Assembly: GCA_905178155.1 (NCBI GenBank)
Contig: CAJINV010000005.1
Coordinates: 6,936,580-7,000,579 of the forward strand
Direction: 5' to 3'
DNA: 64,000 bases
From: Amoebophrya sp. A120
Lineage: Eukaryota; Protista; Dinoflagellata
Both the position numbers and the translations under genes were made by a program. The notes under the pieces are model-generated. The model had not been told where the DNA came from, did not search any database, and saw only the letters and a list, made by a program, of their open reading frames with translations. Positions 5,050-57,700 of this stretch are shown here, piece after piece; the stretch's first letter is position 1; each line of letters starts with the position of its first letter.

Positions 5050-6004
5050 ATGGGCGAACTCTCCGAAGAGCAGTACAAGATGTGCTGCGACGCTTTCGCG
5101 GCCTTTTCCAGCCAGGAAGGTCTGCTGACCCCCTTCGAGTTGAATAATTGCATGCGCTCGCTCGGACACGTATGCATTGTAAATTTCGACCCGTACATGT
5201 ACTTACAAAATGCATGACAAAGAAATATCGCTAATTTCAGTGTACAACTTGTCATGCTAGACTAGGATTGAAGGCAAGTTTTGTGATGCAGAGACTGCAT
5301 TTGTACCTGTGCGGGAAATTTACAACTGTGGATAACACGCCCCGGGATCCGAGGAATTCGCAAAAATTCTGGAAGAACACGACTTATACTCGAAGGGAGG
5401 GGTATAGGATTTTGGGTTGACGTCGAGCTCAAGCACCATGTTGTAATATTCGCATGACAGTATGACTGGTGAAGATTCACACGCATTTATGACAATAAAG
5501 ACATAAGTTGTACTTAGCAAATACTAAATGTAAATCAGGTGTCACTCCAAGGCTTCCTCTACATCATCGCCCAGAGAGAGGCGTCAACAACGTTGAAAAC
5601 GGGGCTACTCGACGTGTTTAGCAAATTTGACCGAGACCAGAACGGATTTGTAGACGCGGAAGAAATCAAGGAGGCGATGATGACGCTGGGCGAAGAGCCG
5701 TTTACAGAAGACGAGTGGGTGAAACTGCTGGAGGAGTACGAGATGCCGCCCGACAATCTATCCTGTGCAAATAAAGCATCGTACTCGTACGAATCGCAGG
5801 CATGCTACACAAATTTCTTTTTCAAGCTATTCAATCTATCAGCATGGCGTATTCCATTTGTCAGCCATTTGTAGCCACGCTGAACCAAAAATTTGTATTG
5901 CAAGATTACGAGGACGAGGAGTGCGATACTTTTGCCGTTCATAAAAGCAAATCGACTACCATCAACTCGTCGAGATTATGACTCGGAAGCACGACCAGCC
6001 GTGA
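5050..6004 (+). CDS. Calmodulin-like EF-hand protein (~152 aa)
   Basis: Exons 5050-5170, 5340-5401, 5539-5758, 5949-6004 total 459 nt: MGELSEEQ..MRSLGHAP..FSKFDRDQNGFVDAEEIKEAMMTLGE..IDYHQLVEIM. Two introners and one GT-AG intron (5402-5538). Confidence 0.85.
5171..5334. mobile_element. Introner family B (opposite orientation to 393-572)
   Basis: TSD ACACG/ACACG. Confidence 0.85.
5759..5943. mobile_element. Introner family A (diverged)
   Basis: TSD CAATC/AAAGC; removal restores EF-hand spacing. Confidence 0.75.
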
Positions 6005-6319
6005 GAGGGGTTCTCGACAACTGGTCTGAGATGTTGTTAGCACTACACTGCCTACGAAGATATCAGACAGTGTTTTTTTGACAAGTAAAAGTCAGCAAGT
6101 TTATTTGGAACAATCGCAGCGACCTGCTGTTCCTGCGCGCTATCAGAATGGTTGTGTAAGTTGTGAAGTGAAAAGTTGTCAAAAGCGCGGCCTTTGTCGT
6201 ATTAAAACGACGCGGTCAGCACAAAAATCGAATTGTGTTGAATGTTACGTGGCAGGGAGTTCTCACCAGTGACTCCTAGTGGTTGACGGTGGTCCTGTCG
6301 CCCGCCACTGTCGTGAAAC

Positions 6320-7694
6320 AGCCCCGTTGTGTATACTGTTGTTCAGGAAAATTTTTGTTTTGTGCTGGCCTTCTTTGTGTTGGCCCTGGTTTCCCGCGTT
6401 TTTTTCGCACGACATCCCCGGGTCAAATGTGCACGAGAGGGCGTTGGCCCTCAAAATAAAAGCGCCGGGCGCGCCGCGGCCTTTTGGGTAGCCTAGGTAG
6501 CGAAGAGAATGAACGGCCGACGGCCTCCCATCAATCAGAACCCCGGCCCGGGCCCGGAGTAGATGCAGCCGGCGCGCAAAATAGAGAGGCCACTCTCATG
6601 GGCGTGCGTGCTTGCGAAACAAAGACAACCGCCATAATTTTGCGCGCGGCCCCGGCGTGTCTCGCGGGCGCCCCTTGGGGCGGGGCCGGCTTGGGGTGCG
6701 TGGTCCGCGGAAAAGTTGTGCTTCCTCCCTAAGCCACAACTTTTCCCGGAGTCCGGTCGTGTTTGAGGGTAAAAAGAAGCTGCACAACGCCCAAGGGGGG
6801 CAGAAAAAGACAGCCACAGGTCGTGCGTAACCTAATGCAGCATGGTATGGCTGCGAGGAAAATTCGCACGCAGCGATACCATGCAGCATAACCTCACGCC
6901 CGATGCTACCGGGAGTGCGAATATTGCTGCTTGGGGATAGCATCGCGCAAAAGGTTACGCCCGACGGTGTGCAGCGGCTGTGGCAGCCGCTTTTGGCGAA
7001 CGGGGGGATTTGTAATGCGGAGAAGCGCCCGGGTTGCGGAGAACCCGAGGGTCCGGGCTTTCCCCTTTTCCCATTTTACCCACAACCCGAACCCCGAGCT
7101 CTGGGGAGCCCCGCACTCCGCATGTGTAATGCGGAGAGCCCGACCTTTCCGCCCATTGCATTTGTAATGCGGAGAGCCCGGCCTTTGAAAGGTCGGGCTC
7201 TCCGCATTACAAACGCAATGGCTATGGGCACCTTTCCGCACTTGTAATGCGGAAAGGCCACCTTTCCGCATTTGTAATGCGGAGAACCGGAGGCGCGGTC
7301 TTTCACTTTCTCCAACCGGAGGAAGCGGAGTTTGCGAATTTGTGGCGCGGCTTTTCTCCGGCGGGGAGAAAAGCTGCATCTGCATCCGGCTGGTTTTCCA
7401 ATTTTGTAATGCAGTTTTTCTCCACCCGACCGCTCGAGCGGAGAAAAACCGCGCGCAAAACAAGTAGCTTTGCGCGCGAAAAAACGGGCACAAGCCCTAT
7501 GAAAAGCGCAGCTTCTACCCCGTCCGGAGCGGGAAAAGTTGTAAGCGGGTGGAGCCCCATTTGCTTCCTCATTCTCGTAGGTCGCTAGTTTCATTCTCGT
7601 GGCACTATATGCTCTTTCTGGGGTCAAATTGTATTTTGTCCGTTCATAGCCCCGTTGTGTATCTATACTGTTGTTCAGGAAAATTTTTGTTTTG
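6320..7694. mobile_element. GC-rich ~1.3-kb segment bracketed by a ~43-bp direct repeat
   Basis: AGCCCCGTTGTGTAT(CTAT)ACTGTTGTTCAGGAAAATTTTTGTTTTG at 6320-6362 and 7648-7694; internal array of TGTAATGCGG and a palindrome at 7161-7213. Confidence 0.5.
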
Positions 7695-8892
7695 GATATT
7701 AGAGAGATGCGACAGCTATACGCAGATGAAAGTCGAGGCGAATTCGAACACTTGAACCTCCGCAAGTAGATCCAGCACTCCTGCTGTACGCGCAAAAACT
7801 TCATCTTTTGCAGCGACAGGAGAAGAAGCACTAAAAGTTTTTCTCAAGATCACTGCCGAGAAAGTCTTTTAACTTTCTCCATCTGCTGATGTTCATAGTA
7901 CACCCGCATCAGCGCCGGTAGCAGCAGCGTTGGTTTTTTTTCTGCATCGCGTTTTTATGTTGCGGCATAGTTCTTGCTGATAATTTTTGCACCTCGCAGG
8001 TACTTCTACTCACAGTGAGATAAACGAACCGGAAATTTCAAATGGCAATTGAATTGACAAAAAAAACGTAGAAACGACGTGAGGATAGGCATTGTTTCGT
8101 AAATGTCACTTAGTTAAAAACCGGAGCCGTTTGAAAAATACCAAATATGATAGTGTCAGAATAGTACTACTGTATTGAAATAGAGCATCAAGTTGGACTT
8201 CGACTTACCAGCTAGTACGTATAATCTCGTGAATTTTTGACGACAATAAACTCTACTTCTATCTCAGCTTCATTAAGCTTGTTTATCCCTTCTGCAGTAT
8301 TTTTGCGAAAATCGAAACGAAAAGAAATTGAAATCACACATAAAAAAATGTCAACGCCTTGCTTCTACATGTTCTTTCTCCAACAAATGAGATACAAGAA
8401 AGGCGGACCAAGAAGTTCCTTTATCGGCGACTTTTTAAGGTTTTAGCAATATTATTTTACGATATTTTTTTAAGGTTTTATTTTGCGATAATTTTTTTAC
8501 GATTTTTTAAAAGCTACTTGATTTAAGTAATGAATTCCGCTCCGTATGGTAAATATACTGCGACAACCAAAATCGATGTGGTACTACGCACTGCAAGCCG
8601 GTTGACGACTCTCACACCCTTCCTGTGAAGGTTTTTCCGAGGAACCAACTTGGCGCGGCTCGCACGAGTAAAAATCGAATAAGACGAACGAACTCCAGCC
8701 AGGAGGTTGTATAGCTGGAGAAGCTGTATCACCAGCGTCCGTCGGGCGAGGCGGCTGGTGTGCAACTACGCATCAAGTACAGCGTGAAGTGGAGTTAGGA
8801 ATAAATTATCCAAACACTATATTAAACGCGGACGAAGAACCGCGACCTAAGCAGAACCGTAGAGCCGACCTTCCTGGAGGTGGAAGTGGAGA

Positions 8893-11800
8893 ATGGGACT
8901 ACTTCTGCTACACCGACATAACAACGCGACGAGGCGAAGTAGTTGTAAAACCAAAGAGATTTCTTGTCTCCATCAGCAATGTTTTCAACTTCAAAACACA
9001 AAGAGACCCTGCTCCTGGACAAGGACCACGAGATCAACATACTCAATAATTTTTTCTTTCGCATTTTTAAAACGAAAACTAAGCAGTCGCAGTCGTCCAC
9101 CACCAGGCTTGTTCTGTCACTTCGGAACACCAAGACGTGGGATAGTTCTTCTTTGTGTAGTCCTAGTACCTTTCCTACAACTTCTTATTTCTGTTACCGG
9201 TCTCAGAGCTGCTGCTCCATCATCTCCATCTTCCAGCAAGAAAGGACATCATCAGCGTCGACCAGGCCAGGACTTTCCTCCAGGGAACAAACACCAAGGG
9301 AACCACGACCGTGCTGAAGGTTCGTCTTCTTCCGCTGGGGCATATAGAAGTAATTCCCAGCGCCAACCACTGAATCTTCAATCTGGGGTAGTTCATCTAG
9401 AACCTCCTGGTGGACCACACGCACACAATGACGTGCAAATTGTCCAGCGCCAAGTGCTGGAAATGGCGCAGCACAGGGATCATGTTGACGAATCGGGTAA
9501 AAAAACGGCAGGAGAGCATCTGCATCACCGTGGCGGTGATATTTTTGGTGCAAGATCCCCGTCCAATATTCTCGATGATGATGCTCAAAACCACGACGAC
9601 ACCACCAGAGAAGATGAAATAGCAACACACGATCGAGTTTACGCGCAACAAGAGCAGCTGCGCCACCATGTCGAGCCCCTCGACATTCAAATCACGTGGG
9701 AAACGCGGTCGCACGCGAAGTTTTGCTTCATCTACACTGCGAAGCTGAAAATCAAAAAAGAAAAGAAGCGAGGAGCCCGGAAGCGGAAGCGGACCATTAT
9801 GCCCTTGGGGGAAGAGGAGGAGGGGGATCAAGATCAGGACATGACTTCTTCTGGGAATAATTATTTCGGAGGGCTACCACGACAGGAGGATGCTTTCGCG
9901 GACCACATTGCCGCTGACCAGGAACTCGCGGCGCAGTACGAAGCATTGGAAACCGATTTGCAAAAAGACCTCGAGATGCTTAACGTGATGCAAAAATCTA
10001 GGGCGGAAGCAAGAAAGAATAGATACGGAAGACACGACAATCACCAAGATCCTCAGAAGTATAAGGGGCAACAACAGCATCAACAAGCAGCCGCGAGCAG
10101 CAGCGCAGCAGATGGGTCGGTGCACCGCGGGATTCTTCGGGGAGGAGCGTCCTCTAGTAGTACTTCGCAGCACCCGCTGCAGGTGGATCCTGTACTCAGC
10201 GAAGAGCAGTTCCACCAAAGAGCTTTAGAGCTCCACGAGCGGATTGCGCAGAAGAAGCTGCAGCTTGAAAAGTTCTTGCACAGGGATCATCAGGCATCTT
10301 CATCTTCTGCCGATCTTCAACAGGTTGTTGATCAACATCGATCAGCTGCAAGGAGCAACAGCAAAACTTCGGGGGGTCATCACCAGCATCATCAAACCCA
10401 CCACCACCCGACCGAGCAAGTGACCGTGTGTCAGCAGTACCGGCGAGTTCGGCAATACTCGACCCGCACCCATGGGGAAGTCTTTCCCTCCCCTGGACAG
10501 CGACTATCACAAGAAAAGAGGGTTACAGTTACACCTTTGTTGTAACTTCAGCAACACAAATTTTCTCTGTGTGGCAGAGAAAACTTGCAATGCAGAAATC
10601 CTAAGGGAAAACACGTACGAAATGAAGTTCGAAAGCATTTCTTGCATGACAAAGGTTGTCTGTCTTGCGGCTCTTACGACACAACCTGTATACTGTAAAC
10701 ATTTTTTTCTCACGATAGCGACGGAAGAAGGTCCACTACCCGCGGAAGCCGGACATATGAGAGTGCACAAGAGCCCCCCCCTGCCCCTCTTTTGTCATGC
10801 AAAACTCTGAGAAATCCAAGCGCTGCGCTGTGGCACTGTTTGCATGACAGATTCCGGAAGTGGCCCAGACAATATACTACAATAGGCGCATGAACTTGCC
10901 ATGCAAAAGCGCGACGTGTGCTGGTGTTTGTATTGCTATTCATGCCAACATATTACAAATGAGGGAGAGGGGAAGTAAGTTGTGCACTTTCATAGGACCT
11001 GAAGACGGTCCACAACGAGATGAAGAGCAAGGCGCAGATCACCGTTGACAAGGCCCTGGCGCCCACCCTGCCCGGCGCGCGCGAAAATGCGGGGTTCGGG
11101 TGCGCGATTGAGATGCTGGAAAGGCGAGAGAAATGGCGCAGCAAGTGGCTGGATGCGTGCGGCTTCAGCGATTACGATCCGAATGTGATGTATGGGAGTG
11201 TCAGGATCGAAATCGACAAAGTTGAAATAACTTGTAATGCATAAAATGCATGACGCGAAATACGTGCGTTGCAGAGCAGGCAAGTGAGGCCGATGGTAAG
11301 CCTGTTTGGGGTCAGAGCTCGAGCTGCCAAAGCAGCATGAGAGAATCAGTCTTCTTTGCCTAAACAGCATTACAAACTGGATTTAGGCACCTCCAAGATT
11401 TGTCATGCGTCACTTGGAAACTGGGTTCCAACTGGCATCCATTTTATGCATGACAAATCATTTCAACTTTGTCCATCTCGATCCTGACAGTTGCATATGA
11501 TGCTCAAGAAGGTGTTGCACATGCACGACACGCAAGAGGAACAGGACTTCGATGATGATACGTACTTTCTGTTCACGCAAGAGGGAAGCTCCGCGATGAA
11601 CCGGGAGTTTTTTGAGTTGAACCACCGGAACCGGCTATCCTATGGAAAAACGTCCCCACACCATAGTCAAGATGGGAAATCTGCAACACAAATCCCCAAG
11701 TTTTGGGAGTTCTGCATGACAAGTTTCCATCTGCATTGTAGTGCGGACTGGCAAGGAAAGCCGCATGACAAAGCCATTTTCTGATCCTGTTTGCAGCATT

Positions 11801-14800
11801 GCAAATGCCAAAACACGACTGGAAATGCCTCTCATGGAGATGCGCATTACAAATGCTTCTGTCATTGCACATGTGCATGACAGCGCCGGGGTGGCGATGT
11901 TTTTACACAGGATGTCGGCACATCGTTGGGAATTACGAGTCCTCCTTTCCGGAGAACATCGAAATCCGCACCGACCGGAAAGTGGGGAGCCATCCGCAGA
12001 AGCAGTACATCAGCGATCCGGCCAAGCACAAGGCGGTGGTCCGAATCTCGTTGAGTGGAAACGGTTGGTGGGTCCCGACAGTTGGAAAAAAAACGAAAGC
12101 GGCTGCGCCACAAAAGATGACGAAGGTGTTGAACGACCAGGATGTTCTTGACAAAACTGCTAGTACCGCTACTGAAGCAGTAGCAGAGGCCGCGCCACCT
12201 CCAGTGCTAGCGCAAGAACTACATCAAGTCGAAACCGGTCGAGGACAAGAAGAAGACTTTGATTTCTTGCTATCCGAGATCGATCAAGATGACTCCAAAA
12301 CCAACCGCGAGAAGGGGTTGATGAAAGAAACAGAGCGGCTCTTCACGGTGAAGAAGGAATTCGATGACGAGGCGGAGCGACTTTTGCGGGAAAAAGAAAA
12401 GCAGGCAGAAATTGCGAGAATACAGGAAGAGCAACAACGTCTTCTGGAGCAGACTGCACAAGGTAGTAGAGCAGGACTAGTACAGGAAGATGAAGCACAT
12501 CAAAGCTACTCCTCGGAAGAGCAACGAGTTTCCAACTCGACCGCGGGTGCAGCTGGGGGAGGTGCAGCAGCTGGAGGTGCTGATGTTTCTGGCAACGGTA
12601 CTCGGACCTCAGCGGCTTTGGCGGGCTCACCACACGGAGCGGGAAGGGCAGCAGCAGGGGCGATGGACGTAGAGGAGGGTGGTCAAGAAGGGCAGCACGA
12701 CGAGGATCGGTCGGTTATTGAACAAGACCAAGCACGCAGACCTCGGGGAGATGATGCTGGACACCAGCAGGACCAAGTTATGCACCACAATCAGCCGGAG
12801 CCAGATATCGGCGTCCAAAGGGCGGGGCAGCTGAATCTAGACCTACTAGAACAGCAGCAGGATAAAAACGCGGCCCCCGCGCGCAGCGGGACGCCACTCA
12901 CACTGAACGACGACGATGAACACAGAATCTGGATGATGCAGACGACGGATGAGAGCGGCGGGGAAAATCCAAACCAACCAGGAGGTGGAGGTGTTGGCAG
13001 ATCGACGAACAGCTCCGGAGTTGCAGGGGAGCAGGAACAAACAGTTCCGGTGATCGTCGCATCATTGATGGAAGAAATGAAGGGCAAAGAGGTCCTGCCA
13101 GAAACCGTTGCGGACGATGGGAAGAGCACGCACCGGGAACACCCTACGCAAACGGGGGCGAACCGCGGCCACAAAGTGCGGAACTGCCTCGCGGAAATAC
13201 ACGAGCAAATGAGGAACGTCAGCTTCCTATGAACTGCAAAAGTATCGTACTTCTACTTGTAAGTGTTGCAATACAAATTAGCTCAGCATGACAAATGGAA
13301 GTTGCCCTGCTGATTTAGCTTGAAAAAGAAATTTGTCTTGCATGACTGCGATTAGTACGAGTGCGATACTTTTGCACAGGATACCTCCTCGCGGCCATGG
13401 AACGAGCGAACGAGGACGCGATAAACGTGAGTTTCAGCTACCCACCGACCCCGGACCGCTGCTCGCCCGATATTACGGGATATCAAATGCAAATATGTCT
13501 GAGTCTGGAAGAGTGCAGATTTTTGTCATGCTGTTTTTGCATGACACAGCCGGTCTGTCATGAAAGCCCTAGCATCACAGATTCCGAGACCGTGCCGCAA
13601 TGCTTATTCCGCATGACAAATCCTTCTTTTTGGTGACAGGAAATGGGCACCTCTTGCTGCCTATGCATGAGAGATTTGCGCGTGCAGTGGAATTCGCATC
13701 ACAAGTTTGGACCCTTCCAGACCCAGACATATTTGCATTTGATACGGGACGAACAGACGCAAGCTCCCGGATCGCACTGCTGCTGTATCCTGAGAAAAAA
13801 GTGTTACAGTTACACATTGTGTTGCAGGCCAACCAAGACAGACAAGCTCTGTCATGCCTGAAGATATGCATAGGAGCCTCCTTTGCCATTCATAGGTGAA
13901 GGTGTTTTCCCGTAGGATTTCTGCATTGCAAGTTTTTTCTCTCATGCAGAGAAAGTTGTGTTGCTGAATTGACAACAAATCTGTAACTGTAACACTTTTT
14001 TCGCGCGATATGCTGGCTACCACTCCGACTACAAACGCTGACGGGAAGCCGAGAAGGCCTCGGTCTTTCGTTCCCAAAATTGTGATGATCGAGCCCCCGC
14101 CGGCGGAGAGAGAACCAGAACACCCTGCGGAAGCTGCAGAAGACCACAAGTCGAACCAAGAAAGTAAACAACTTCAAGAAACCACTGCAGGAGCGGAAAT
14201 AAATGCTGCCGCGGCGCAGCAGCACGACGCAACTACAGCAACAGGCGAGCAGGGGATGATGTTGAAAGGCAAGCGACAGCGACAGGCAAGTAAAAACAGC
14301 ATGAGTGAAGGTCAGCGGCGGGGACAGCAATCGCAGGATCATGTTGGGGAGCATTTGCTACACGATCAGCAGGATCCGGACTCACCAGAAGAGGAAATAA
14401 GTTATGGACAAAACAAGCAAGCCGCACAAGAAGAAGGACCACCACAGCTGCACCAGCAAATAACGAAAGTGGTCCCCGCGACGACAACTTCCTCCTCACC
14501 GAAGAAAAGCCGTGGCGGAGGAGAACAAGGACTCCTTCACATTCCAGCCGCTAACACACATTCCGTCTCAAACAGCACCACGGCTGGGCTGACCACGCTC
14601 GTGAACCACGGGGCAATGACTGGTGTAGTGGAAAACGCGGGATCCCGAGACAGTCACGTGAGTGGAAGATCCAACATGACGAGCGGCAACGCCGGACGGG
14701 CGGGAAACGCAGTGGCCGCTGCGGGAGTGGTAGTATGCATTGCAAAAGTATAATATCTTCGTCCTACTAGTACTACAGGAATTCGAATTGCAATACGAAC

Positions 14801-17800
14801 AAGTAGCTCAGCATGACAAAAAATGGAGCTTGTCAACATTCAGATTCAGCTTGAGATGGGGATTTGTGACTCCTGATTGCGATTAACACTAGTACAACGG
14901 GTTCGAAGATACTTTTGCACAGGATAGGTAGCAGGACCTCACAGTAATATGGGAAGTCCCCCGCCAGGCCCGCCAGCGACGCCCAACAATGGATCTTCTA
15001 CTAGTAGGCAAGATCTACAACTCCCGGTGCAAAGTCCAGTAATTGAACATTTACAGCACAATCCCGTCAGAGTTGTCCTGTCCCCCGCGGCGGGGAATGA
15101 CCTTCAACATCCTCCGCCCCCCTGGCCAGACATGGCGCAAAACGGCACCTCCACGAGCGGACCGTTGCAAATGCACCACCTCCCCACACCAGAGGCCTCG
15201 GAAGCGGTGGGGTCGCATGACTTGAGTTTACAACAACTAGCCTACAACACGACCAGGTCCAGTGTGGTCCTGTATCAAGTGTAAAAATGTCTGGGTCTGG
15301 AAGAATGCGCGATTTGTCATGCAGCTTTTCCATGACCCATGAGGTCTGGAATACGAGACCCAGCATGACAGATTCTTTGAGGTCTCTATCATGCCTTTCC
15401 TGCATGAGAAACTCCCTCTCAACTTGGTCAAAAGGGTACAGCTTTTGGCACTCATGCAACACAGATTTCTGCATGATTCGGATTTAGCATGACAAGTTGC
15501 AATCTTCCAGACCCAGACATTTTTACAATCCATATCCTGCCTAGTGCGACGAAAGGAACTAGTACATCCAGGGGAGGTATCCAGGAAAAAACACCCATCC
15601 CCATCCAATTTGTCATGCAAAACATGCATGAAGTCCACTACTTGTCATGCAAAAAATGGATGGGGATGGGTGTTTTTTCCTGGATAGGAGGTGGTGGAGC
15701 AGGAGGAGCTTCTGGGCCAGGTACTCGTTCTGGGATTCGAACAGGAGCAGGCAACAAGGAAGACCAGATGAACACCACACAGAGCCCTATCACGTTACTA
15801 GAGATGCAGCAGATGCAAGATCAATTTCAAGACTTGCAGCTGCTAGGTGCGAGACGTAGCCCGCGCGCAGGAGCAGGCGGAGTTCTTGTTCCTTCCTCAT
15901 CTGTGCGTGAAGATGTTGCACCCGCTGCCACCTACGCGGGGGGAATGATTGATGTTAGGTCGGGCGCTGCAGCTACGGCTCCTCGAGAGCAGGGCGCACA
16001 TCACGCTGCGGCCGCAAATAAAACTGCGGCAAGCGGAGGTACTAGCGGTAATACTAGAACAAGAAAGCAGACACGACCGCAAGTAGATGAACAAGCCGCG
16101 GCACCACCACCAGCTCCTGCTACATCAACCAACGATAACCATAACCGCGTGGAGGCGATGCTGAGTGGGGATTTAGATGATTTGCTTAACCTATGGATTG
16201 CAAAAATGTCTGGGTCTGGAAGAGTGTGAACTTGTCATGCAGGTTTTCCATGACCCTTGAGGTCTGCAATGCGGGACCTAGCGTGACAGAGTCTGTGCGG
16301 TCTCTTTCATGCCTATCCTGCATGAGAAACTCCCTCCCAACTTGGTCGAAAGTGGACAGCTTTTGGCACTCATGCAACACAGATTTTTGCATGATTCGGA
16401 TTGAGCATGACAAGTTGCAATCTTCCAGACCCAGACATTTTTGCAATCCATATAATCGCCAGTCGTTTCTGGATGGATTGCAGCGGAATTCCAGCGTCGA
16501 TGTGCACAGACATTCTAATTCCGGCGGAGGTAATACAAAAGATGTTAACCTGATGAAGCATGTCAAGAAATCCTCGGCACGAGAGGTGGAGGACCAGGCA
16601 AGAGCAATGGTGAGTCCCGATCACCATTTTCCGCAGGAGCTTGTCGGCAATAAAACTAGTATGGACGTGGAGATGCGCAATGCAACGGCAGGGGGAGGAG
16701 GGGGAGGCCGAGGTGGACTACAGAATTTTTACCAACAGCACCAAATCGGCGGAAGTTCGTCCTCTTCCGCCATGGTAGGTGGGCAAAAACTACAATATTC
16801 CCAGGACGTTGCACCAGTTGTACAACATCTTCCACCTCCGCAAAAGCCGCCCTCACATCCCGCGACCAGCGCCGCCCACGCAACAGGCGGTGGAATAACC
16901 ACCATCAACAACGTTACTGGCGGATACCATTTTTACGCCAGCAGTGCAGCCGCTGCAGCTACAACAGCGTCTATTGTGCAGAACGAAGGAACGAATGGTC
17001 CAAACCCAACAGTAAATCAAGATGAAAAACCGAAGCAGGGGGAAGTTTTGCCCCGAAATGTGAAGAACTTTGTGCATTTAGAACCGATCCACTTTCCGCC
17101 AACCATCATAACCCCGAGCTTTCCCTCCGGGGACAAGAATGTGATAAAAGAGCAGTACGGGGGGGACGACAATCACCCAGCACTTCTCCGGTTCCCCCAC
17201 ATCAATCAATTGACAGACAACACGAGGCAAACGGAGGAGCAGCGGGAATATTACAACAGTAAAAACGCGCTGCTGCATTTGCGGTTCGGCGGCCCGAACG
17301 CGGGCGAGGGGGTATCGAACTGGCGGGGGTTATCAAGTGCAAAAGTGTCTGGGTCTGGAACATTCTAAACTTGTGATGCTGTCTCTGGATTCTGAAAAAA
17401 ATTGTATTGCATGACCAGCAAGAGGGCTCCAGTTTGTGCTACGTGGAGAGGGCATTTCTCATGCTGTACAGGTATCACAAAGCGCTCTAAAATTCTGTGA
17501 TGCTACGGCATGCATCACAGACATCATGGGGCATGGAAAATATGCATGACAAACCTAGAAACCTTCCAGACCCAGACATTTTTGCATTTGATAGGGGTCT
17601 TTTAGTTACAAAGTGTACCGGGAAATTGTGGATATTGAGAAATTATTCCCCTTCCCGGTATTGGACGATATCATTGTCGACGTGAAAACGGGACAACAGG
17701 TCGACGGCGCTCAAGAAGTTCTGGAGGAAGAGTATCATGTTGAGGAGCACCGGGGGCGGCCTGGTAGCGCGATCAAGCAGAAAAGACATCAGCACGTGTC

Positions 17801-36422: not shown

Positions 36423-36540
36423 ATGATGATAGATCATGAGCCAGTTGCTTTAGGTGTCAGGGAATAAAGACTCTAGCCGCGCGGCTTCTCCACGACGTGC
36501 ACCACGTGCAGGCTTCGCGAAGACCCCCTTCTAATCGAAA

Positions 36541-42500: not shown

Positions 42501-43035
42501 GTACGATATTTCCGAAGAAAATCAAACAGAATTACTACGACGGCACTTAATATCGACTTCGCCGGATGCGGGGAGCGGCGGGTATGGCATAGACCACCAG
42601 CAGCCGCCGGGGATGATGATGTTAGGAGGTGGGAATAACTCGAAGTGTGTCTCCATGTTGGCGATAACAACCACAACAAGAATGACATCGTCAACTAACA
42701 GCGGACCACCTGGACGTGGTCCTGGTCCCTCCAGCATGACCACAAGCACAAACAGCCCGATGCTGCTGGTAATCAGCTACGGTGATGGGTCTGTGCAGCT
42801 CTATGATGTCGCGGAAAACGCGGTGAGGAAAGTGTGGAGCTGCGGAGACGGGAAGGCGGCAAGACTGAGTAGTGCGATCAGGGCGAACTGTGATTCTTAT
42901 GCGGGGGTAATGATGGTGGATGGAAGTTGTAGCACAGGTTTGTCTTGTGCAGGAGGGATGGGTGCAGCAGCAACCTCGTTGGAAGATTTTGTCTTCTGCA
43001 CGGAGGACGGGTCGCTGTTTCTGGTGGGGTACTGA
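36541..43035 (+). CDS. FAN/NSMAF-like BEACH-domain protein (GRAM/PH-BEACH-WD40, ~1,550 aa)
   Basis: N-terminal [26 protein letters not shown]; BEACH motifs [65 protein letters not shown]; WD40-like C-terminus. Eight introners and one GT-AG intron (38813-38946). Confidence 0.9.
36566..36778. mobile_element. Introner family G2 (TIR core AAAAAACTGTGT)
   Basis: TAG..ATA; TSD GAGTT/GAGTT. Confidence 0.8.
36841..37009. mobile_element. Introner family A (diverged)
   Basis: TSD TTCGC/TTCGT. Confidence 0.8.
37362..37509. mobile_element. Introner family A (in-frame, stop-free)
   Basis: TSD AGCAA/AGCAA; ORF 37053..38444 reads through it. Confidence 0.85.
38422..38636. mobile_element. Introner family G2
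   Basis: TSD GCAAT/GCAAT; removal restores DLSQYPIFPW. Confidence 0.9.
39611..39880. mobile_element. Introner family E
   Basis: TAC..ATA; TSD GCGTT/GCGTT. Confidence 0.8.
40050..40217. mobile_element. Introner family A (diverged)
   Basis: TSD CCGCG/CCGGG; removal restores FGRVPFQLF. Confidence 0.85.
40814..41065. mobile_element. Introner family E
   Basis: TSD CAGTA/CAGTA. Confidence 0.85.
41464..41705. mobile_element. Introner family D
   Basis: TAT..ATG; TSD CTTGT/CTTGT. Confidence 0.8.
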
Positions 43036-43933
43036 GGATTTTGATCTTCTTTACGATTTCTGCCTACGTAGCTAGAAGTACTTCTATCACCAATGAGCGG
43101 CTTCTTTTTCCCGAATAGGAACCAGCAATGTGATGTCCACATCTACTCCTAACTCCCATCATCCACTCATGATAGCATTGCATGGAAGAATAAGAGCCGA
43201 AACTTCTTCGAAATTGTTGAAAAGTAGCGACACCCACACCCTCACCCAAAAAATCATGTTTCCCTTTACATAGATTCCGAGAATTTTTTCTCCCACCGAG
43301 GACATCATCAACCTCTAGTAATGCAGCGCTGCTTGCACCTGCTAACAAGCAGACAGAGTTACTGCCGCATTGGCTACAACGTGAACGAGCTCCAAAGATC
43401 TCCATGTAGTATGTTCCCGCGCCGCCTGACCACGACATGATTCGATACTGATCCACATTTTTGTCCACACAAGCAGAGACATTGATACGCAAGAGGCTGA
43501 TCCTTTTTTTTTTTGCTCTCGCGTAGAGCTAGAGATCAGCAAGCGCAATCGAAAGTAACAAAGCTCTAGAAGAAAAAATACTAGACAGTGGGTCCTTACG
43601 ATAATTATACCCGGTGTCGTTTTTCGCAATCCCAGCTGCAAGAAGAAGTCAATGTAGGCTCGATGTTTTTACTGCGTTTCATCTCTAACAGCGACAAGCC
43701 CTGCCTCGTGCGGGTGGTTTCACTCATACTTGAAACATGTGTTTCTGTTTCAGATTTTTGTAGAGTAAGAACCACGACACAGCAAGTAGAAGTAGGACTA
43801 GAACTACACCAGCAACAGAAGTACATCAAGCAACGTCACGACGAGGACCCATGATAAGAGTTTAGCGACCCTCCACCTTATATCACAGATTTAGTATTAC
43901 CGCCGGGCTGACCTCCGCAAAATAAACGTGACG

Positions 43934-46900: not shown

Positions 46901-47007
46901 TAGGGAGTGGAACTGGGATGCTGTTAGCGGTAAATTTCACCTACACCTATATGGAGCAATTAGCCCGGGAAGGAGGCGGACTGCCGAACATGGGGCTCTT
47001 CGCGTAG
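43934..47007 (+). CDS. SEC61A: Protein transport protein Sec61 subunit alpha
   Basis: [78 protein letters not shown]. Four introners and five GT-AG introns. Confidence 0.95.
44418..44555. mobile_element. Introner family A
   Basis: TSD GACGA/TACGA; removal restores PIVTTSMILQ. Confidence 0.85.
44729..44867. mobile_element. Introner family B
   Basis: TSD ATCAG/ATCAG; similar to 393-572. Confidence 0.85.
46129..46340. mobile_element. Introner family G-like (TIR core GAAAAAA..TGTTTCACTGTG)
   Basis: TSD TACTG/TACTG. Confidence 0.85.
46608..46755. mobile_element. Introner family A
   Basis: TSD AAGCT/AAGCT. Confidence 0.85.
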
Positions 47008-48274
47008 TAGAGTAGAAGTGGCGAGTTGTTGTAAAGACAAGTCCGACCCAGTTGTAAGAAAAAACAATGTCTGAACTATGTGCGCCGCAGAAGCTTTTTG
47101 CTGTCGCGTATCGAAACCCAATGATGTGCTGAGTACTTTGTTGTCTCTCGACGCAACTCCAACTTTTTCAAATGTAACGACAAGGGTAAAAGAATGAAGG
47201 ATCATTCATTTGAATTTTTTTGGTCTTAGATGTAGTTGTGTCAACGTCCCTCCATGTTGACATTGTAAAACGCATGGCACTTAGTCTTCAAGAATCGCGG
47301 TCACAGTTGGCAGCGTAGCAGTATTACCAACCAACCAAGAAAACAACTTACTACTCTCCCTGTTGTAACGTACCGCGCACCTCCTCCTACGATGCGTGAC
47401 TGTGAACTTGATTTCAATAGTTTTTGTGTGTGGCTGCATGGGCCGCGCTCGTCGAGTACTAGGTGCTCCTACTTCAAAATCAAAAATGTAAAAATTTGTT
47501 CTTCATTCGTCTGCGCCGATAAACGAACGAGAGATCATCGGCATCGACCACAAAGGGAGTTGTCGTGATTAAAAAAATACACTGGATCAAAAAAGGTGTT
47601 ATACTCAGTCGGTCTACATGTACACCTTGATCTTGCAACTTGATCATGGAGACGTTGTTCACCTCAATCTCACTTCACGATCACAACAAGCGCAGCGTAA
47701 ATGAAAAGTACAAGTACAACCGTGAAGACCCTCGCTGAGTAAGGCAGGACGAGGATCAGGATCTCTCTTCTGTAACGATGTAGAGGTACAACAATAACAA
47801 AGAAAAACAACTCAGGTCAGCAACGAAAGGTGGATCTCTTGACGTAGTTCCAAATGGCAAACAGTTCCAGGATCTTCAGAAATTGATGAAGTTGAACCGA
47901 TCAAATGCGATGCTTGAAGATGCGCAAGATGAATCTAAGACTACAACGACCTTCATATGATATTCATCTGCACCAAACATTTACAGTGACACTTGTTGCA
48001 CCTGTTTGCCACTGGAGGACAACTTTAATCACATCAAAAGTAAAACTTGAAGCCAAACTGAAAGATACGGCAGTATTCTATACTAGGTAGTCGCATTTAT
48101 TGGAGATCTCTACTGCTACTATTCATTTTCTCTTCGTAAGCGTAACAAGTGAAGGTTGGAAGTACTCTTTTTCAAGGAATTTTTTTTCACTTTTGGAAAG
48201 ACCATCGTCATAACCTGCTGTATATCGAAACTGCATCACAAATTATACCAACTTAATACACATCAAACAATAAA

Positions 48275-51175
48275 ATGTCCCACCTGTCCGTTGCTTCCAC
48301 CGCGGAGCCGGCGGAAGCGGCTCCGGCCGCCGACCCGGAAGCCGTTCAGAACAACGAAAACCACGAGATCGACTCCGTGATTCCGGATGACCCGCTGGAA
48401 AACGAAACCCAGGCGCCGGAGGAGAACGATCAGGAGGGGAATGACGACAACGAAGATGACATCAATTCCGTCCCCCCGCCACCCCCGGAGGATGAGGAGG
48501 AACAAGAAACCGGTGTTGCAGCTGGTGGTAATATGTCTACCAACCAGCTGAACGCTGACGCTGCGGAGTTCACGATGGGAAATAGTAATCAGGACCAACA
48601 AATCGCTAATATGAACCCGAATGTGGTGAGTATGATGGGGAATAACAATATGCAACACCCTATGGCAGGAGGCGAGAACAAGAACAATCACCACCGGCAG
48701 AAGTGGAATCCGATGCACTTTGTCGGGGAGTTCGAGGACTCTCTCGGCCACCGGATCACCTCCGTCGAGGTGCCGCCGCGGAACCCCACTGGACCGGGTA
48801 TGAAACAGCCGGAGCCGTCCTTTCACGCCCACTTTGTGGCCAGAAATCGCCCGGATAAGAGGTACTGATTTGATTCTTCCTATATCAATCTGTTGCGATT
48901 GCTTCTGCTTGCATGACAGGGACTGCTTGCAATGGAATGTTCTTACGCATCAGAAGTTAGTTGTGCATCGAGATTTTTGCATGGAGATGTTCATGGGCTA
49001 ATAGCATGAGAAACAAAGGTCTTTATTCGTTATGCGAATACACATACACATCGACGAAACACAAAAACAGGTTCGTCATCGCCCGGAAGCAGGTGATGCG
49101 ATCGCAGAAGCGTGCTTGGATGTGCGGGAATGGGTACTTTTGCCACCAGCTGTCCAACCCCGACCGGATTGTCTTTCAGACCATCGATGGACGGGAAAAC
49201 GTCTGGACGAGGCTGCCACCGGTAGAATTTTTGTTTGTCATGCAGTAACAGGCAAGAGACGCACGATTTCCGTTGCTACAGTGCTAGTTTAAGTAGTCTA
49301 TGTTTATTGTGTGCTTCCTTTTAATATTGACGTTCAAGTTTGTCATGCATAATAGCCACAGCACTTCGAAATATTAAACGACGACACTACATCACACTAT
49401 CAGGCCGGCGCCGTTTTCTTCGATCCGCCCCCGAATCTGACGATCGACGTGGATGCCGCAATGGCGCAGTGGCGCGAGGAGCACTTGAAACTTCTCGAGC
49501 AGAAGATGACGGAGATTCATCTGGAGGACGAGCAAGCGATTGCGGAGAAGGAACAACAACAACAGCAAATTTTGACCGAAAAGAACGACACGACCGAACA
49601 ACAAGAACAGTTGCAAAATAACGTTGAGAAGGTGGAAAATATTAACGCCGTCCAACGGAAAGAAAAAAACGACAAAAATACGACCGAAAAGCAGGCATTC
49701 AAAACTGGCGAAAGCACACCCTCAACAACTCCGGATGAGGAAAGCAAGGAGGAACCTAGTGCCACCGAAAACAAGAAATCCGACGACACCGAAGCCACTT
49801 CCTGGGCAGCAAAGCTGAAGAAGTCAACAGAGACGAAAGCGTCCTCATCAACTGCTACGAAACAGGAGAAAAAGGACACCAAGCCAGTCCCCAAAGTCAT
49901 GGAAAACGTAGAAAAGTCATGGCCACCAAAGAAATGGGCGGCCAATGCCAACGCGGAGGAATTTTTCCCGGCTTGCTTGGAATTGACCCGACCAAGAGTA
50001 AGCGGGAATGCGAAGCAGGTGAAGGAACTACAGGTAAGTATGAATTAATCTTAAATAAACAGATAAGTACCACTGACTAGAGGCTTAAAGCGACGAGCTT
50101 GCGATGTATATTTTCCAAACATAGTTAGAGATAGAACCGCGAGTAGCATCATCTTCTTTGTAGTTGTGCAGATTCAAAATCAAATTTGACCTACTTTACT
50201 AGTTTGTCATGCATATTATCCGAAACAAAAAAAAACTTGTATCAGGTCCGAGCGGTCTCTGATGTTGGGATGGGCAACCAGATGTTCTCCGAATTGCAGT
50301 GGACGTTGGAGGAAAAGTGGAGCCAGTTGAAGAAGAATCCGACGGATTTCGCAGTGGTGTCCCCGCACTTCTCAGTCGGCGTCGTGGAGAACGTATTTTT
50401 GCTTTACATACTGTTTGTACTTTTTGGCAGTACAGAGTCAGTTTGTCATGTAAGAAGAAGCATGAGAGGCTAATATAGAAAGAGCAGCCAACATCCGCGC
50501 TTTATCTACCAAGAAGCCCAATCGTATCGCTATCTTGTATGGAAAGACTCAATACTCTGTCGTAAATGAAAAACACAAAACAACTATCAGCTCCAACTTT
50601 CCTTTTTCCCGTCCGGGAGGAAAGCCAGCGGCAAGAAGTCGAAGCACACCTCGCTCCAACTGATCACGGGCGATTTGCAGGAGAGAGCCATGGGCTTGGA
50701 ATTGGAAATTATGATCAACGGCATTCGGTGTGAAACCGCGAAGAAGACGGTTAGTGGAAGGTTATGGATGTGTCAGAATCGAAATCGTCAAAGTTGAACT
50801 AGTTTGTCATGCATAAAATGCAACGCAGAAATTGTCTCTATTGCAGAGAACGCAAGAGAGGCAGACTGTAAGCCTGTCGAGGGGCAGAAATAGAGCTGCC
50901 CAAGTAGCATGACAAAAGGCGTCGACCTTACCCAAACAGCATGACAAACTGGATTTAGATTCTACCCAAATTTGTTATGCGCTACTTGGAAACTGGGCTG
51001 CAACTGGCCTCCACTTTACGCATGGCAAACTATTTCAACTTTGTTGATTTCGATCCTGACGCTTCCATAAAGGTTCACCGGGGACTACCCGTCTATGGAT
51101 GATAAGACGGAGGAGGTGAAGATTTGCTTGAGGATAATCAACTTGTTTAAGGACGAAAAAAAGATCGAGAACTAA
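48275..51175 (+). CDS. Hypothetical acidic protein with two PAM2-like motifs and a possible MATH-like C-terminal domain
   Basis: NQLNADAAEF and NANAEEFFP resemble PAM2 (LNxxAxEFxP). Four GT-AG introns plus introner 50763-51069; TAA at 51173-51175. Domain calls made by eye. Confidence 0.6.
50763..51069. mobile_element. Introner family C
   Basis: TSD AAGGT/AAGGT. Confidence 0.85.
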
Positions 51176-52257
51176 GAATGGTTCTCGTACTTCTCAGGAA
51201 CAACGGACATCACGGATTTTGTTTCCAATCAACGCATTATAGAATTTCACAACAAGAAATCAACTATGATGTGGAACTGGGGTCGCCTGATTACTCAACT
51301 TTTTGACGACCGAAAGATCGAAGTGTAAAGGTTTTGGCACTAATTGTATGCAGAATTGGCAGGGGAGGAAAATCTGGAAGACTGCAACGATTTTACGGCA
51401 CAGTGATGACAAAATAAAGAGAAAAATCTACTTGACTCATTTACGCGCACGAGAGAAGATGAAACTTTTTATACTAAATGCATATGAACGCGTGATTTAT
51501 TCGTAGGATGATGGGAGGAGGAAGACTGATTTTTAGAATCAAGGGCTTAATCTAGCGCTACACACTTTTTAGACGACCAACGGCAAATAATGAAATTCCT
51601 ATACCGGGTTTTTCGTTCCGGACGAAATATTAAGCCACTTACAACGCACTTTGATCAGTCTTTTTAGACATGGAAAAGCTGAAAAAATATAATTTCGGAG
51701 GGCAGCCGTCCCGCTCGCGGTTTTGGCCCCTGGGTATGAGCAGCCCACTTGATTGTTCCAAAGATGAAGATGTTCGCCTTGTTTGTATTGGTCGTCGTTC
51801 TACTTCGTTTCAGTTCTATCGTTGAAGATGTGCACGTGGTGTTTGACTAATTGCGTTATCAAGGTCGTTCGTTGACCGTGAGAAATTCCACTTTCGTTCA
51901 TCTTCCTATGTAAGTACCTAGATACAAATCGTCCTGTCCTTGCTCACGTCGTTCTCCCTGTCGTCGCCGTTCTCACAACATCCCGACCGTTCTCAAAAAG
52001 CAGACCTGTCCACGTCGTATTCGTTTTGGTTTTTCAGAAATAACACGAAGTACGAGTTCCAACACTGTTCTAACATAGACTACATTTCATCTCCGTTGTT
52101 GCAGGTTCGGCTACTCAGAGCGCCCTCGTGTTTCTTCTTCGCTCACGCAGAATCAATTACAAGAACCCTGCGTGTTGCATACGCCACCACATAGTAGCCC
52201 TCGAAATTGTTCGCATTCATTTCCAGCCTGTTTGGAGATTTTCTGTTTCTCAGAAAG

Positions 52258-53677
52258 ATGGTCGTACATCTATCGAAGAGTAGAGTCGGCAAAGCCACAG
52301 CCGTGTTGGCACTCCTGTCGCACACCGCTGTCTATGCCGATCCAGCCCCGGTACAACAACCGGCGGAAAAGAACGGAAGGCAACTACCTGAAATAAACAC
52401 CTCGGCGGACAATCGTATCCTGAAGCCGAGACTTCGTGGGACGTTGCGGAAAAGAGAACTGCTGGAAGAGGCAGCTGCATCAAACCTGCTTCCAAGTAGC
52501 AACTTGATGCAAAAGCAGGAACTTCTGCAAGAACTACAGCTGCACAAGAAAGAAAACGACGGCGCACTCGAAAAATTACAACGAACCTCCGAGCAAGAAC
52601 TCTCCCCCAAGCCGCGCCTCCGCGGCACCCTCCGGAAGCGAGAACAGGAGCAGGCCGCGGCGATGTCGGCGGCTAAAGTAAAACTACAGGACAAGTTGGA
52701 AGGCGAAGGGAACAAGCCGACGGCTGCAAATGATGATGCAACAGCAACTGCAAGCAATTTGATGCAGGTGATGAAACAGCAGGAGCTGCATCTTCACAAA
52801 CACGATCACGGAGTCGTGCCACCGCAGCAGCTCCAAGACCACCTCGTCCAAGCCGGCTCGAACGAAAACATTTCACAAGACCACCTTGTTCCCAAGCCCC
52901 GGCTCCGCGGCACTCTGCGGAAGAGAGCGGAGAGGGAGATGAAGCTGAAAAGCGCGCCGGACGGTGGTGCGGAGACGAAAGAACTACTCACAGTCCCTGC
53001 TACGTCGGACGACAATGTGACGGAACAGCATGAAATAAACACCAAAGTCACCGCCAGCAGCACAACTTCAACTTTGCAAAAGCTGGAGCAACGGGAGCAG
53101 CAAAAACACGACCTTCAGCAAAACCACAAGTTCGAAACATTTATGCTGGAATCAAAGAGTTATCTCAAGGAGAAATTCGAAGAACTCTCGTCGTCCATGG
53201 GCAAGAAATTGGACGAAATTGTCGACGATTACGTGCAGCCGTTTTTCAAATCCGCGGAAGAAAAAACCGTGGAATTGGCAAACGAAGCGCTCACTGGGGC
53301 CGTGCAATCTTTCACGGAAACCACGACAAACGGCCCGGATGAGGGCAGCTTCTGGGCGAGGTTTCAGAAACAAGAATTCGCGGAGGTATGACAGTGCACA
53401 ACTCCCCTTCCCCTTCATTTGTCATGCAATATACCCAGTCCACCCTTGCCTTTGCCACTTGGCACTGTTTGCATGACAAGTTCTGCTTCTGGTAGCTTAA
53501 ATAGCACTACTATAATGCTCTAGTGCAAATTTGTCATGCAAAACCACCAATCTTGTTGATGCTTGTATTGCTGTGTATGGTATACAGATGAGGGGAAGGG
53601 GGAATTGTGCACTCTCATACGCGGGCGGGTTCGGAGATCAGATCGGGGACGAGGTGGTGGCACTGGGGCGGGTGTGA
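52258..53677 (+). CDS. Putative secreted protein with three KPRLRGTLRKR repeats
   Basis: Signal-peptide-like N-terminus (MVVHLSKSRVGKATAVLALLSHTAVYA). Long ORF to 53386, then an introner; short last exon ending TGA 53675-53677 (junction uncertain). Confidence 0.65.
53387..53619. mobile_element. Introner family D with displaced TSD
   Basis: CGCGG-AGG-TAT..ATA-CGCGG. Confidence 0.8.
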
Positions 53678-54783
53678 GAAGAAGTAGGGCGAGGCAGTTA
53701 AGTACTGGCTAAGCACGCGAATGACCGTTGCAAAAGCCAGCGGAGGTTTCGGAATTTCGCGTTCGTTGGCTATTTTTTATTGAGCTGAGCTCCTGTTCCT
53801 TTCCCTTTTAGTATTTTTGCATATTTTTAATTACATACTTATCATCCCACCGAGATCGATCCCAAACCCAACCTACTTTGAAGTCATCAAAAGGAGATTT
53901 TCTCTAGGTTTTCCAAGAACCTTTCTGATGAAAATTGCTACTCTAGATGAGACCACTCCCCCTCAGCAGGCCCAGAGGACCATACAGCACTACCCCGCAG
54001 TTGACATTTATGTTTGGCGTCGCCGTTTTTTTTTTTGAGAGAGTCAAAGACAAAGTTTTGACTGCGCCCTCCCCTTGATATTAAGTAGCATCCTGACAGG
54101 AAGTTGTAGAACACGCATTTCCCGCAAACCACCCAAGAACACGCATTTCCCGCAAAAAATAGTTTGTGATGCGCGGTGTTGGTCGTCTGTCCTCGCGGGG
54201 GAAACTTAGAGGCCACATCACTGCTCGGCGTTCTTCGTTACTGGCTGTGTTCTTCCGGAAATATTTGAAAAGCAAAATAAGACCTTGACAGCTAGCATGA
54301 CAGTCTGACAGAACCTGAAGAGCTTCTAATGAAAGCAAGAGCCAAGAACTACGTCTTTTAGATTTGAGCGAGAGGGAACGAAGAGTATGCAGATAGAGGT
54401 TGCCTCGTATACATAGTGTAGTCTGCACCAATCAAGAACGGAGGCAAGTAACAAGTAAGCACTCGATAATTTATGGCGGTAAGAAGACGAGAATACACCC
54501 TCAGCTACTTGCACGGTGCCCCCTAACCTTCTCGTAATACGTTGCAGTACTTACGCGCCTCTGCTCCCGCCCAATTTTCTACTTGCATAAAATTGCAAAA
54601 TGCGGAGCAAAAACACCATGCCCATGCGAGGGCGGTGATTAAGAACATGCCGTGTTGACCACGACTCGTCGGTTAGAAATTGTGATATGCCTTCTAGCGC
54701 AGATTTTGAGACGCCACTTCTAGCCCGTTGGTCGTGGAGCTAGTTGCTCAGAGGACGAGGAGCTCAAACTTACAAAGAACAAG

Positions 54784-57700
54784 ATGACCGAGCCGGCTCC
54801 TCCGAAGCCGAACAAGCAGCACGTGCACATCGTGGCGGAGATCGGCATCAACCACAATGTATCCTGTACAAACGTATCGTACTCGCATTGCAATCATGCA
54901 TTACAAATCCCTTTCTTAAGCCAAATCTGCATTACAAATTTCATTTCTCATGCTGCAGAAATTTGTATTGCATTTATACGAATACGATTTTTTTGCAATG
55001 CATACAATGGGGACATTGAACTCTGCAAGAAGCTGATCATGCTCGCGAAAACGGCCGGGTGCGACTCCGTGAAAATCCAGAAGCGAAACCCCGATGTCTG
55101 CGTTCCGGAGGACCAGAAGCTATCAAATGCAAAAATGTCTGGGTCTGGAAGAATGCAAGACTTGCCATGCATATTTCTCATGACCCATGATGCCTGTAAT
55201 GCATTACCTAGCATCGCAGACTTTTACAGGGCTTCCTGATGCACCTTCCGCATGAGAAATGCCCCCTCCGTGTAGCACAAATTGCACCCCTCTTGCTGGT
55301 CATGCAATACAATTTTATTTAGAGTCTACAAACAGCATGACAAGTTGCAATCTTCCAGACCCAGACACTTTTGCAGTTGATAGAAACAGAAGATGCGCGA
55401 CACGCCGTGGGGGCGGATGACGTTATCAACTGCAAAAATGTCTGGGTCTGGAGGGATGCGAACTTGTAATGCTAGCTCTCCATACCCAGGAAATCTGTAT
55501 TGCATAGCCAACAATGAAAGTCGCAGCCTCTTTTGTACATGCAAAAACGCAGTATCTCATGCGGATTTCCTATGAGAAAGGGAAAGCGTTCTCAAAAGTT
55601 GTCATGCTGTAATGCATGCGGAACTGTTTCCATCATCCACATTTTAGCATCACAAGTTTCCAGGCCCAGACACTTTTGCAATGCATAGACGTATCTGGAA
55701 TACAAGTGGAAATTGGAATTCAACGAAGAGCAGATCAAAGAGCTGATCGAGTACAGCAAGTGGATCGGGATCACGTTTTTCGCTTCCGTTTGGGACATAT
55801 GCATTGCAAAACTGACGTACGTACGTAGAAATTGCATTACAAATTTTCTCAAGAAGAAAAATACAATTTGTCATGCGTGTTCAGGTAGAGAAAGAGAATT
55901 GAACTTGTCATGGATAGCTGCAATTACTACGAGTACGATACTTTTGGAGAGAATAGGACAAGGAAAGCTGCGATATGATGTGCAAGTACGGCGGATTGTC
56001 GAAAATCCCCTCGGCTTTGATCACGGATTTGGAACTCTGCGAGTACGCAAGGAAAAAGTTCGAAACGCTGATCATTTCGACCGGTAAAGTTGAGAAGAGT
56101 TACGCGGTGATAGACATTGACATAGATGATTTAGGTTTTTGCATCCGCGAAACAGAGGCATTGGCTTGTGATGCCTCTGCATGATAGATCAGTCCAACAG
56201 CTTTACTGACCATTTTCGAATGTTTCTGTATAAGGAGTACTCCTGCATGACAAACAGCACAATCCAAAACTCTTTAGAAAACAGGTATGTCCACCGAAGA
56301 GGAGATCGAGGCCTGTGTGAAGGTGTGCGACCCGGATATCATCATGCACACGAATTCGACCTACCCGTGCCCCTACGAGGATTTGAACCTGCGGTACATC
56401 ACGCACCTGAAGGACAAATACCCGGAAAAAATCATCGGCTACTCCGGCCATGAGTACGGATTGGTTACCACATTTTGCGCGGTCGCGCTCGGCGCGCTGT
56501 ACGTCGAGCGACATATCACGTGGGATAGGAACATGTGGGGGTCTATGGGAGTGTCAGAACCGAAATCGTCAGAGTTGAAATGATTTGTCATGCACAGATG
56601 GATGCCAGTTGGAACCCAGTTTCCAAGTAGCGCATGTCAAATTTTGGCGGTCCTTCAATCCAGTTTGTCACGCTGTTTAGGCAAAGAAGACGGATTTTCC
56701 CATGCTACTTTAGCAGCTCGAGCTCTAACCCCAAACAGGCTTACAATCGGCCTCACTTGCCTGCTCTGCAAGACACATACCCCGCGTCGTGCATTTTATG
56801 CATGACAAATCATTTCAACTTTGTCGATTTCAAACCTGACGCTTCCATAGGGTCGGATCAGCTGTCATCCGTGGAGCCGGCGGGGTTGTTGAAATTAGTG
56901 AAGGGCATATGCAAGAAAAAAACTGTGTAAGTGTAACTCTGTAATGCAGAATATGCAACAGATCTACGCCTGTCATGCCACACAGCCACGAAGTCCTTTT
57001 TTCATGTGTGTTTTCCCTTACAAGCCGCGCATGACAGGTTCTCTCTGTTATGTAGACTAAATTTGTGATGCTGTCAGCCAAAGAGAGTTGCACTCACACA
57101 GTTTTTTTCTTGGATAGGGCATCCGGGATTCCAGCGAGTCGTTGGCTTACGAACCATATGGTTTGCTCAAATGTTACAATCTCAAACGTTACAATAACAT
57201 CATCTCAAATTTTCCTGACCGAACATCATGAGTACTGTACAGAGACTTGGGCTTTCGCGATACAAATTTCGCGAGATAATTCTCATGGGGTTGGGAGCTC
57301 CGAAACTTGTCATGCGTGCTCCTGTGGGAGTCGGCCAGATGTTGCGCATCGTGCAACACAAATTCCAGATTCTATGGTATACCGATTTGAGATTGTAACA
57401 CCTGGGCGGGTTATAAACTAGGGCCGAGGATTATGCAACGTAATTTTCCCGTACATGTACAAAATGCATGACAAGCTTCACCAATGTGGAGTGTAACACT
57501 TGTCATGCTAAACTAGGACTGAAGCCCAGTTTTGTCATGCAGAAGCCACATTTGTACGTGTGCAGGAAATTTACTGTGGATAAGGATTCTGTTCGACCGG
57601 GAAAACTCGAAGAAGGTCAGTTTGCGCCCGCAGCTATCCTGTGCAAACGTATCGTAGTCGTATTGCAGTCATGCATTACAAATCTTTTTGTTAAGGCAAA

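Follow-up and report, generated by a model that had tools for sequence, protein, structure and literature searches.

We analysed a stretch of 64,000 nt (contig CAJINV010000005.1, hereafter the window) from Amoebophrya sp. A120, whose genes carry introners, elements with TAT-starting inverted repeats and short direct repeats that are removed exactly (Farhat et al. 2021, PMC7789003). The window also holds canonical GT-AG introns, which an earlier, sequence-only reading had taken for aged introners. The results suggest that these GT-AG introns are probably old spliceosomal introns of the host and not aged TAT introners, and that a short motif common to both intron classes is probably an intron mark selected by the host, which would be read on double-stranded DNA. 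The aged-introner reading of the GT-AG introns is not supported, and the shared phased motif is the unexplained and valuable part of the observation.

All counts refer to this single window, in which the canonical set comprises 16 introns, all on the plus strand and named below by their first position. Every one of them has GTA..AG ends; eight fit transcript-like contigs and four more fit the annotated protein. For Sec61, the gene model with the five canonical introns removed equals the annotated A120 protein, one exon is a 100% match to an NCBI protein named Amoebophrya sp. A120, and two transcript-like contigs of 2089 and 2076 nt have exactly the Sec61 lengths obtained by excising the five canonical introns and four elements with one target-site duplication (TSD) each. 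The contigs X1 and X3 were treated as spliced transcripts from their behaviour, an RNA origin being a guess. The RPN12 model with four introns removed equals the annotated A120 protein over 279 aa, and this protein, not reads, is the basis for those introns. Introns 48862..49070 (GTAC, three motifs) and 49222..49403 (GTAG, motifs including one pair 33 nt apart) agree with contig joints, as does 50393..50590 (GTAT, two weak motifs), next to a loose contig end at 50392. The remaining four were placed from the reading frame by eye only: 5402..5538 (GTAT) in an EF-hand gene, 38813..38946 (GTAT, two weak motifs) in a gene that we take to be BEACH-like, 50034..50245 (GTAA, one motif), and 56084..56284 (GTAA, three motifs) in a presumably NeuB-like gene. 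For comparison, we used 54 short TAT..ATA introners with a 5-bp TSD, spanning 65..59618 without an assigned strand. Sixty elements had been called, six weak motif-free candidates were dropped before counting, a true-looking element at 3756 with no regular-expression match to the motif was kept, and eight further elements were left outside the set. The canonical introns had been described as mostly similar in length to the introners; the ranges do overlap, but the canonical introns are shorter (median 178 versus 230 nt, p=0.001).

The motif was defined as a 12-column profile trained on the introners only (consensus ATTTGTVATGCW), with a cut-off of 9 bits for densities. It occurs in 54/54 introners, divided into 12 groups when compared with the motif masked out, and in 14/16 canonical introns. 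Its density per kb is 20 in introners, 9.3 in canonical introns, 0.29 in exons and 0.93 in intergenic DNA and untranslated regions (UTRs). The canonical introns contain 26 matches in 2.8 kb, compared with a shuffle mean of 1.7 and maximum of 6, and the density is 10.2 per kb in GTAT introns and 8.2 per kb in the others. Eleven of the twelve motif sites listed earlier reach at least 8 bits no more than 3 nt away from the stated place, and the twelfth, at 5453 in intron 5402, scores 7.7 bits, the only motif there. The UTRs bounded by contig ends have two matches in 1224 nt, versus 11.4 expected at intron density, and two intergenic matches fall in a further element at 57157-57415. In the canonical introns the two strands are used 15:11 (p=0.56). 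Same-strand pairs at 30-34 nt number 58 versus 11 expected in the introners and 4 versus 0.69 in the canonical introns (p=0.003, small numbers), with a peak at 31-33 nt in both. Strand independence together with a spacing near three helical turns would point to a protein on double-stranded DNA. The 2649-nt TAT..ATA element nested in an RPN12 intron has 0 motif copies versus 25 expected at intron density. The restriction to introns, the presence in old introns that have no element sequence beside the copies, and the absence from this long element would argue for a role in host splicing and not in transposition.

Two other functions of the motif were considered and rejected. A branch point does not fit, since the motif lies on either strand at no fixed distance and some introns have the reverse form only. 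An RBFOX-like site, UGCAUG, does not fit either, since the variable middle base of the motif abolishes it in roughly every second copy. Three further occurrences were seen outside defined introns: a repeat block at 6300-7700, outside any defined gene, with a flanking direct repeat of ~45 nt and seven motif copies in a tandem-like arrangement; three strong same-strand copies at 63078-63146, 31 and 26 nt apart; and a strong copy at 48232, 42 nt upstream of the ATG in a 5' UTR that is not spliced.

Maturation of introners into GT-AG introns, whether from the present TAT families or from an older wave in ancestral Amoebophrya, would need a G-ending TSD, the gain of AG and the loss of TIR (terminal inverted repeat), TSD and hairpin with some motif kept; the expected form is G-TAT..ATA-NN-AG, followed by G. 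Such a start is on offer, as 17/54 introners provide G-TAT, two of the 54 are already readable as GTAT..AG, one being a young introner with TSD GGAGG at 15578..15686 (plus strand), and five are readable as GT-AG in some register. The earlier statement that the canonical introns have no TIR or TSD was borne out by permutation: they gave 41 TSD matches versus 42.8 permuted and 80 TIR matches versus 82.1, and the true introners, as a control, gave 257 versus 73 and 610 versus 446. No hairpin appeared in the 16 canonical introns (folding z of -0.5, versus -7.3 for 20 random introners of the 54). With the motif masked, no canonical intron matched the introner families of the window, represented by its 54 introners, at E<=0.01; unmasked, the best scores between the two classes were 23-35 bits. 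The exon base after the intron is not G in 5 of the 10 GTAT introns, and at 46396 an Ile/Val/Phe codon fixes it as T, where a G-ending TSD would require G. The other GT-AG registers of a TSD, GTTAT and GTNTAT, were found in none of the 16. A near-perfect motif that outlived everything else would in any case require selection.

The canonical donors are GTA in 16/16, with GTAT in 10, GTAC in three, GTAA in two and GTAG in one; all ten GTAT donors listed earlier are present. T is found at +4 in 10/16 donors, more than the 0.30 share of T in the introns would give (p=0.006), and G at +5 is infrequent (2/16). The introner terminus, said earlier to follow the G of the GTAT donors, is matched over the three letters TAT, but the next base differs, being C or G in 104/108 introner ends versus 1/10 GTAT introns (p=8e-10). 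In the canonical introns, T is abundant towards the 5' end (40%) and A towards the 3' end (52%); the introners show the opposite pattern. Taken together, the missing TSD, TIR, hairpin and homology relics, the different base after TAT, the reversed end composition and the fixed T after intron 46396 speak against the proposal that introners mature into these introns. At the 3' ends of all 16 canonical introns, an A/C-rich tract (52% A, 7% G) replaces the pyrimidine tract and the acceptor is mostly WCAG; the read-through residues of an Amoebophrya-like Sec61 fragment (P0243) suggest the same tract in a distant relative. YTRAY was found in the last 60 nt of 3/16 canonical introns in a branch-site scan.

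The preference for U at +4 is, with moderate confidence, explained by known biology, and the GTAT donor should not be read as a sign of introner origin. In yeasts, donor +4 switches from A to U in connection with METTL16/SNRNP27K loss, and U1 and U6 do not change (Parker et al. 2023, PMC10581693). Table S6 of Farhat et al. (2021, PMC7789003) marks snRNP27 as undetected in both A25 and A120. The A120 introns resemble that class in the +4 U preference and in the undetected snRNP27; they differ in that the class is described by Parker et al. from yeasts and not from alveolates, and in their low frequency of +5 G. The preference may thus come from recognition on the U6 side after loss of SNRNP27K, and a changed U1 would not be needed. 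An Rfam search found no U1 or other small nuclear RNA (snRNA) in the window. A perkinsid-like contig (L033) provides a single example of a GTATGT donor.

The age of the canonical introns would follow from breaks at the same codons in the proteins of relatives. Among the introns conserved in position between A25 and A120, 98.6% are canonical; these conserved introns make up ~19% of all introns, 35% of A120 introns are canonical, and the introner families are strain-specific (Farhat et al. 2021, PMC7789003). Roughly half of the A120 canonical introns therefore predate the A25/A120 split. In RPN12, the AT5 gene model is without exactly the A120 codons 57-84, which form the exon between the GTAT introns 30594..30709 (codon 57, phase 0, two motif copies) and 30794..30965 (codon 85, phase 0, one copy). 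A read-through protein from a 2.5-kb contig of an environmental relative (P0134) has a 94-residue insertion at N|V, the site of intron 30794, and no break at codon 57. In Sec61, the environmental protein P0243 is 58% identical to A120 and places outside the A25/A120/AT5 clade with a tree support of 100/99. Its homology sets in exactly at codon 309; the residues before that point are unrelated, the last being Q. Codon 309 is the site of GTAT intron 45780..45931 (phase 0), which carries two strong same-strand motifs 32 nt apart. Intron 45441..45665 (GTAC, codon 271, phase 0) lies at the site of an intron in an animal-like gene (L138); proteins from plants, bovids and environmental samples are also broken there, and no other breakpoint has so high a peak. 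Thus, for the nine Sec61 and RPN12 introns, the position is shared in four (three of them GTAT), is 1 nt off in one, and for four nothing was found. On the positional side, three of the seven GTAT introns in these genes have a matching break in relatives, which also weighs against maturation; all three bear the motif, so that the combination of GTAT, motif and shared position, by which the earlier reading would have been refuted, holds in part.

Several observations concern the relatives themselves. Intron 44098..44292 (GTAC, codon 55, phase 2) lies one base before a Q|I site used by both L033 and L138, which may reflect intron sliding or a parallel gain. L138 (JAVBJR010001224.1) is an intron-rich animal-like Sec61 gene on a contig filed in a bacterial metagenome-assembled genome, and L081-L083 are likewise eukaryotic contaminants; it was the one intron-rich eukaryotic contig among 60 in the genome scan for Sec61. 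In the metagenome scan, the 80 retained of 585 Sec61 loci were nearly all intronless, five with breaks and three with introns, none of them Amoebophrya. A scan of viral sequences gave no match to Sec61, and 38 matches to an introner 16-mer, which is the chance level. AT5 appears nearer to A120 than A25 is (P0001/P0002/P0004 and P0121/P0122/P0127; support 97/97 for RPN12, weak for Sec61), so that non-canonical introns have either been lost or are hidden in AT5, or have two separate origins. By gene numbering, RPN12 lies close to Sec61 in AT5 and A25 as well.

A number of points weigh against old host introns that carry a selected mark, and some of them favour maturation. Intron 45441, whose position is the most deeply shared, lacks the motif (best score 5.3 bits), and 44098 has a single weak copy. 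Intron 45441 also has a perfect 5-bp flanking repeat, four letters of which are splice consensus. TA stands at acceptor positions -6,-5, where the terminal TA of an introner would fall, in 7/16 introns against a local expectation of 5%. Three canonical introns lie within the top 2% of a motif-keeping null, and the 31-33 nt spacing common to both classes would also fit descent of one from the other. For the canonical introns of A120, Farhat et al. (2021, PMC7789003) report inverted or direct repeats in 15%. The position evidence consists of breaks in the proteins of relatives and not of their DNA. No shared position was found for four of the seven GTAT introns of Sec61 and RPN12: 31690..31806 (RPN12 codon 198, two same-strand motifs 33 nt apart), 31891..34692 (RPN12 codon 226, three motifs, one pair 32 nt apart), 45059..45273 (Sec61 codon 215, phase 1, one motif) and 46396..46570 (Sec61 codon 391, phase 1, one motif), the last at a place where P0243 is unbroken. 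AT5 groups with A120 in the trees and its introns are predictions, so this strain may not be introner-free, and an older introner wave would give shared positions as well. Parallel intron gains have been published (Collemare et al.). Both read-through introns of P0134 begin with codons implying GTNG, so GTAT is not clade-wide.

With old introns and a host-selected mark still preferred, a fuller account can be offered tentatively. A120 would mark its introns on DNA, with a host protein that binds the phased, strand-independent 11-12-bp motif and directs co-transcriptional splicing; unrelated transposon families would be spliced without GT-AG, and the old introns would have acquired the mark. 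Such a protein would contact two motif copies at a time, phased at about three turns of the helix, and help to define introns during transcription. Introner families landing in exons would be selected for many motif copies, and old introns with proper GT-AG ends would keep one to three. The A120 introns of Farhat et al. (PMC7789003) agree with those described here in organism, TAT inverted repeats, direct repeats and the enrichment of canonical introns at conserved positions; the passages of that article covered here, however, give no internal motif common to introners and canonical introns, no phasing and no statement on +4 U. In the parts of the literature covered, no report of the shared motif was found, and Fig. 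3 (logo) and Figs S14-S25 of Farhat et al. may already show the GTAT donor.

A clearly less likely explanation is donor mimicry, in which selection has fitted the N-TAT end of the introner to positions +2..+4 of the host donor, a spliceosome with relaxed recognition of +1 cuts there, and the motif is a helper at the RNA level. TA at +2,+3 in 16/16 donors and T at +4 in ten are consistent with this, as are the nine predominant non-canonical donors of A120, all with T at +2 (Table S4), the A25 elements, which start with TTA plus two purines, and a U1 snRNA that went undetected though U1-70K, U1A and U1C are present (Farhat et al. 2021, PMC7789003). However, the likeness ends at +5, the TSD makes the introner cut register unreadable from complementary DNA, and a motif on either strand is hard to reconcile with an RNA-binding site. 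Moreover, G precedes TAT in 17/54 introners, no enrichment over a flank G of 30% (p=0.88). The earlier suggestion that the transposon end exploits a host GUAU specificity therefore falls in its strong G-TAT form, and its weak form, the match of N-TAT at +2..+4 together with the T at +2 of the predominant non-canonical donors, may still hold. Mimicry and an old origin of the canonical introns, as in the preferred reading, are not mutually exclusive.

DNA transposons with TIRs and miniature inverted-repeat transposable elements (MITEs) carry sub-terminal repeats, short motifs in both orientations near the element ends. The motif could likewise be a sub-terminal binding site of a transposase, copies of which reached old introns through introner traffic (insertion with imprecise loss, or gene conversion) and have no host function. 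The copies, which set in ~29-46 nt inside each introner end, show the phasing of such repeats, and the element nested in a canonical intron indicates that introns are targets. We regard this explanation as unlikely: intergenic and UTR DNA is a six-fold larger target with one tenth of the motif density, no introner sequence flanks the copies in the old introns, and, unlike sub-terminal repeats, the motif is common to 12 groups with unlike interiors and to non-mobile introns and is missing from the long TAT..ATA element.

Aged introners are the least likely of these explanations: decay of fungal introner-like elements into ordinary introns is published (PMC3609843), and the maturation idea and the parallel gains near old positions are shared with that system (PMC3609843, PMC4457414), but the fungal elements have normal splice sites from the start and the A120 introns show no decay relic.

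The element nested in the last RPN12 intron, 31891, occupies 32011..34659 (2649 nt, no strand assigned). It is GC-rich with internal tandem repeats, has a 5-bp TSD and TIRs of ~120 bp (111/120 matching), and is a long relative of the introners. It has no long clear open reading frame, only short stop-to-stop frames, and no family search was made; lying within an intron, it need not be spliced by itself. A GC-rich motif-free insert of ~760 nt was also seen in the introner at 19221-20156. A raw RNA run with the same species label (X8) gave 93 reads, all on the introner end at 41034-41065 and none on exons or splice junctions, which may come from another strain with the same family or from a retained copy elsewhere. 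The presumed NeuB-like gene (54785-57800) is broken by ~9 elements and one canonical intron, and its frame extends beyond 57160 and spans three further elements.

Farhat et al. (PMC7789003) pose as an open question how tens of thousands of introns with non-standard ends are removed in A120, in which U1 snRNA was not detected. The motif, shared by all introner groups and old canonical introns, offers a first concrete sequence handle on it, as a bait for pull-down, a target for mutation and an object for a genome-wide count.

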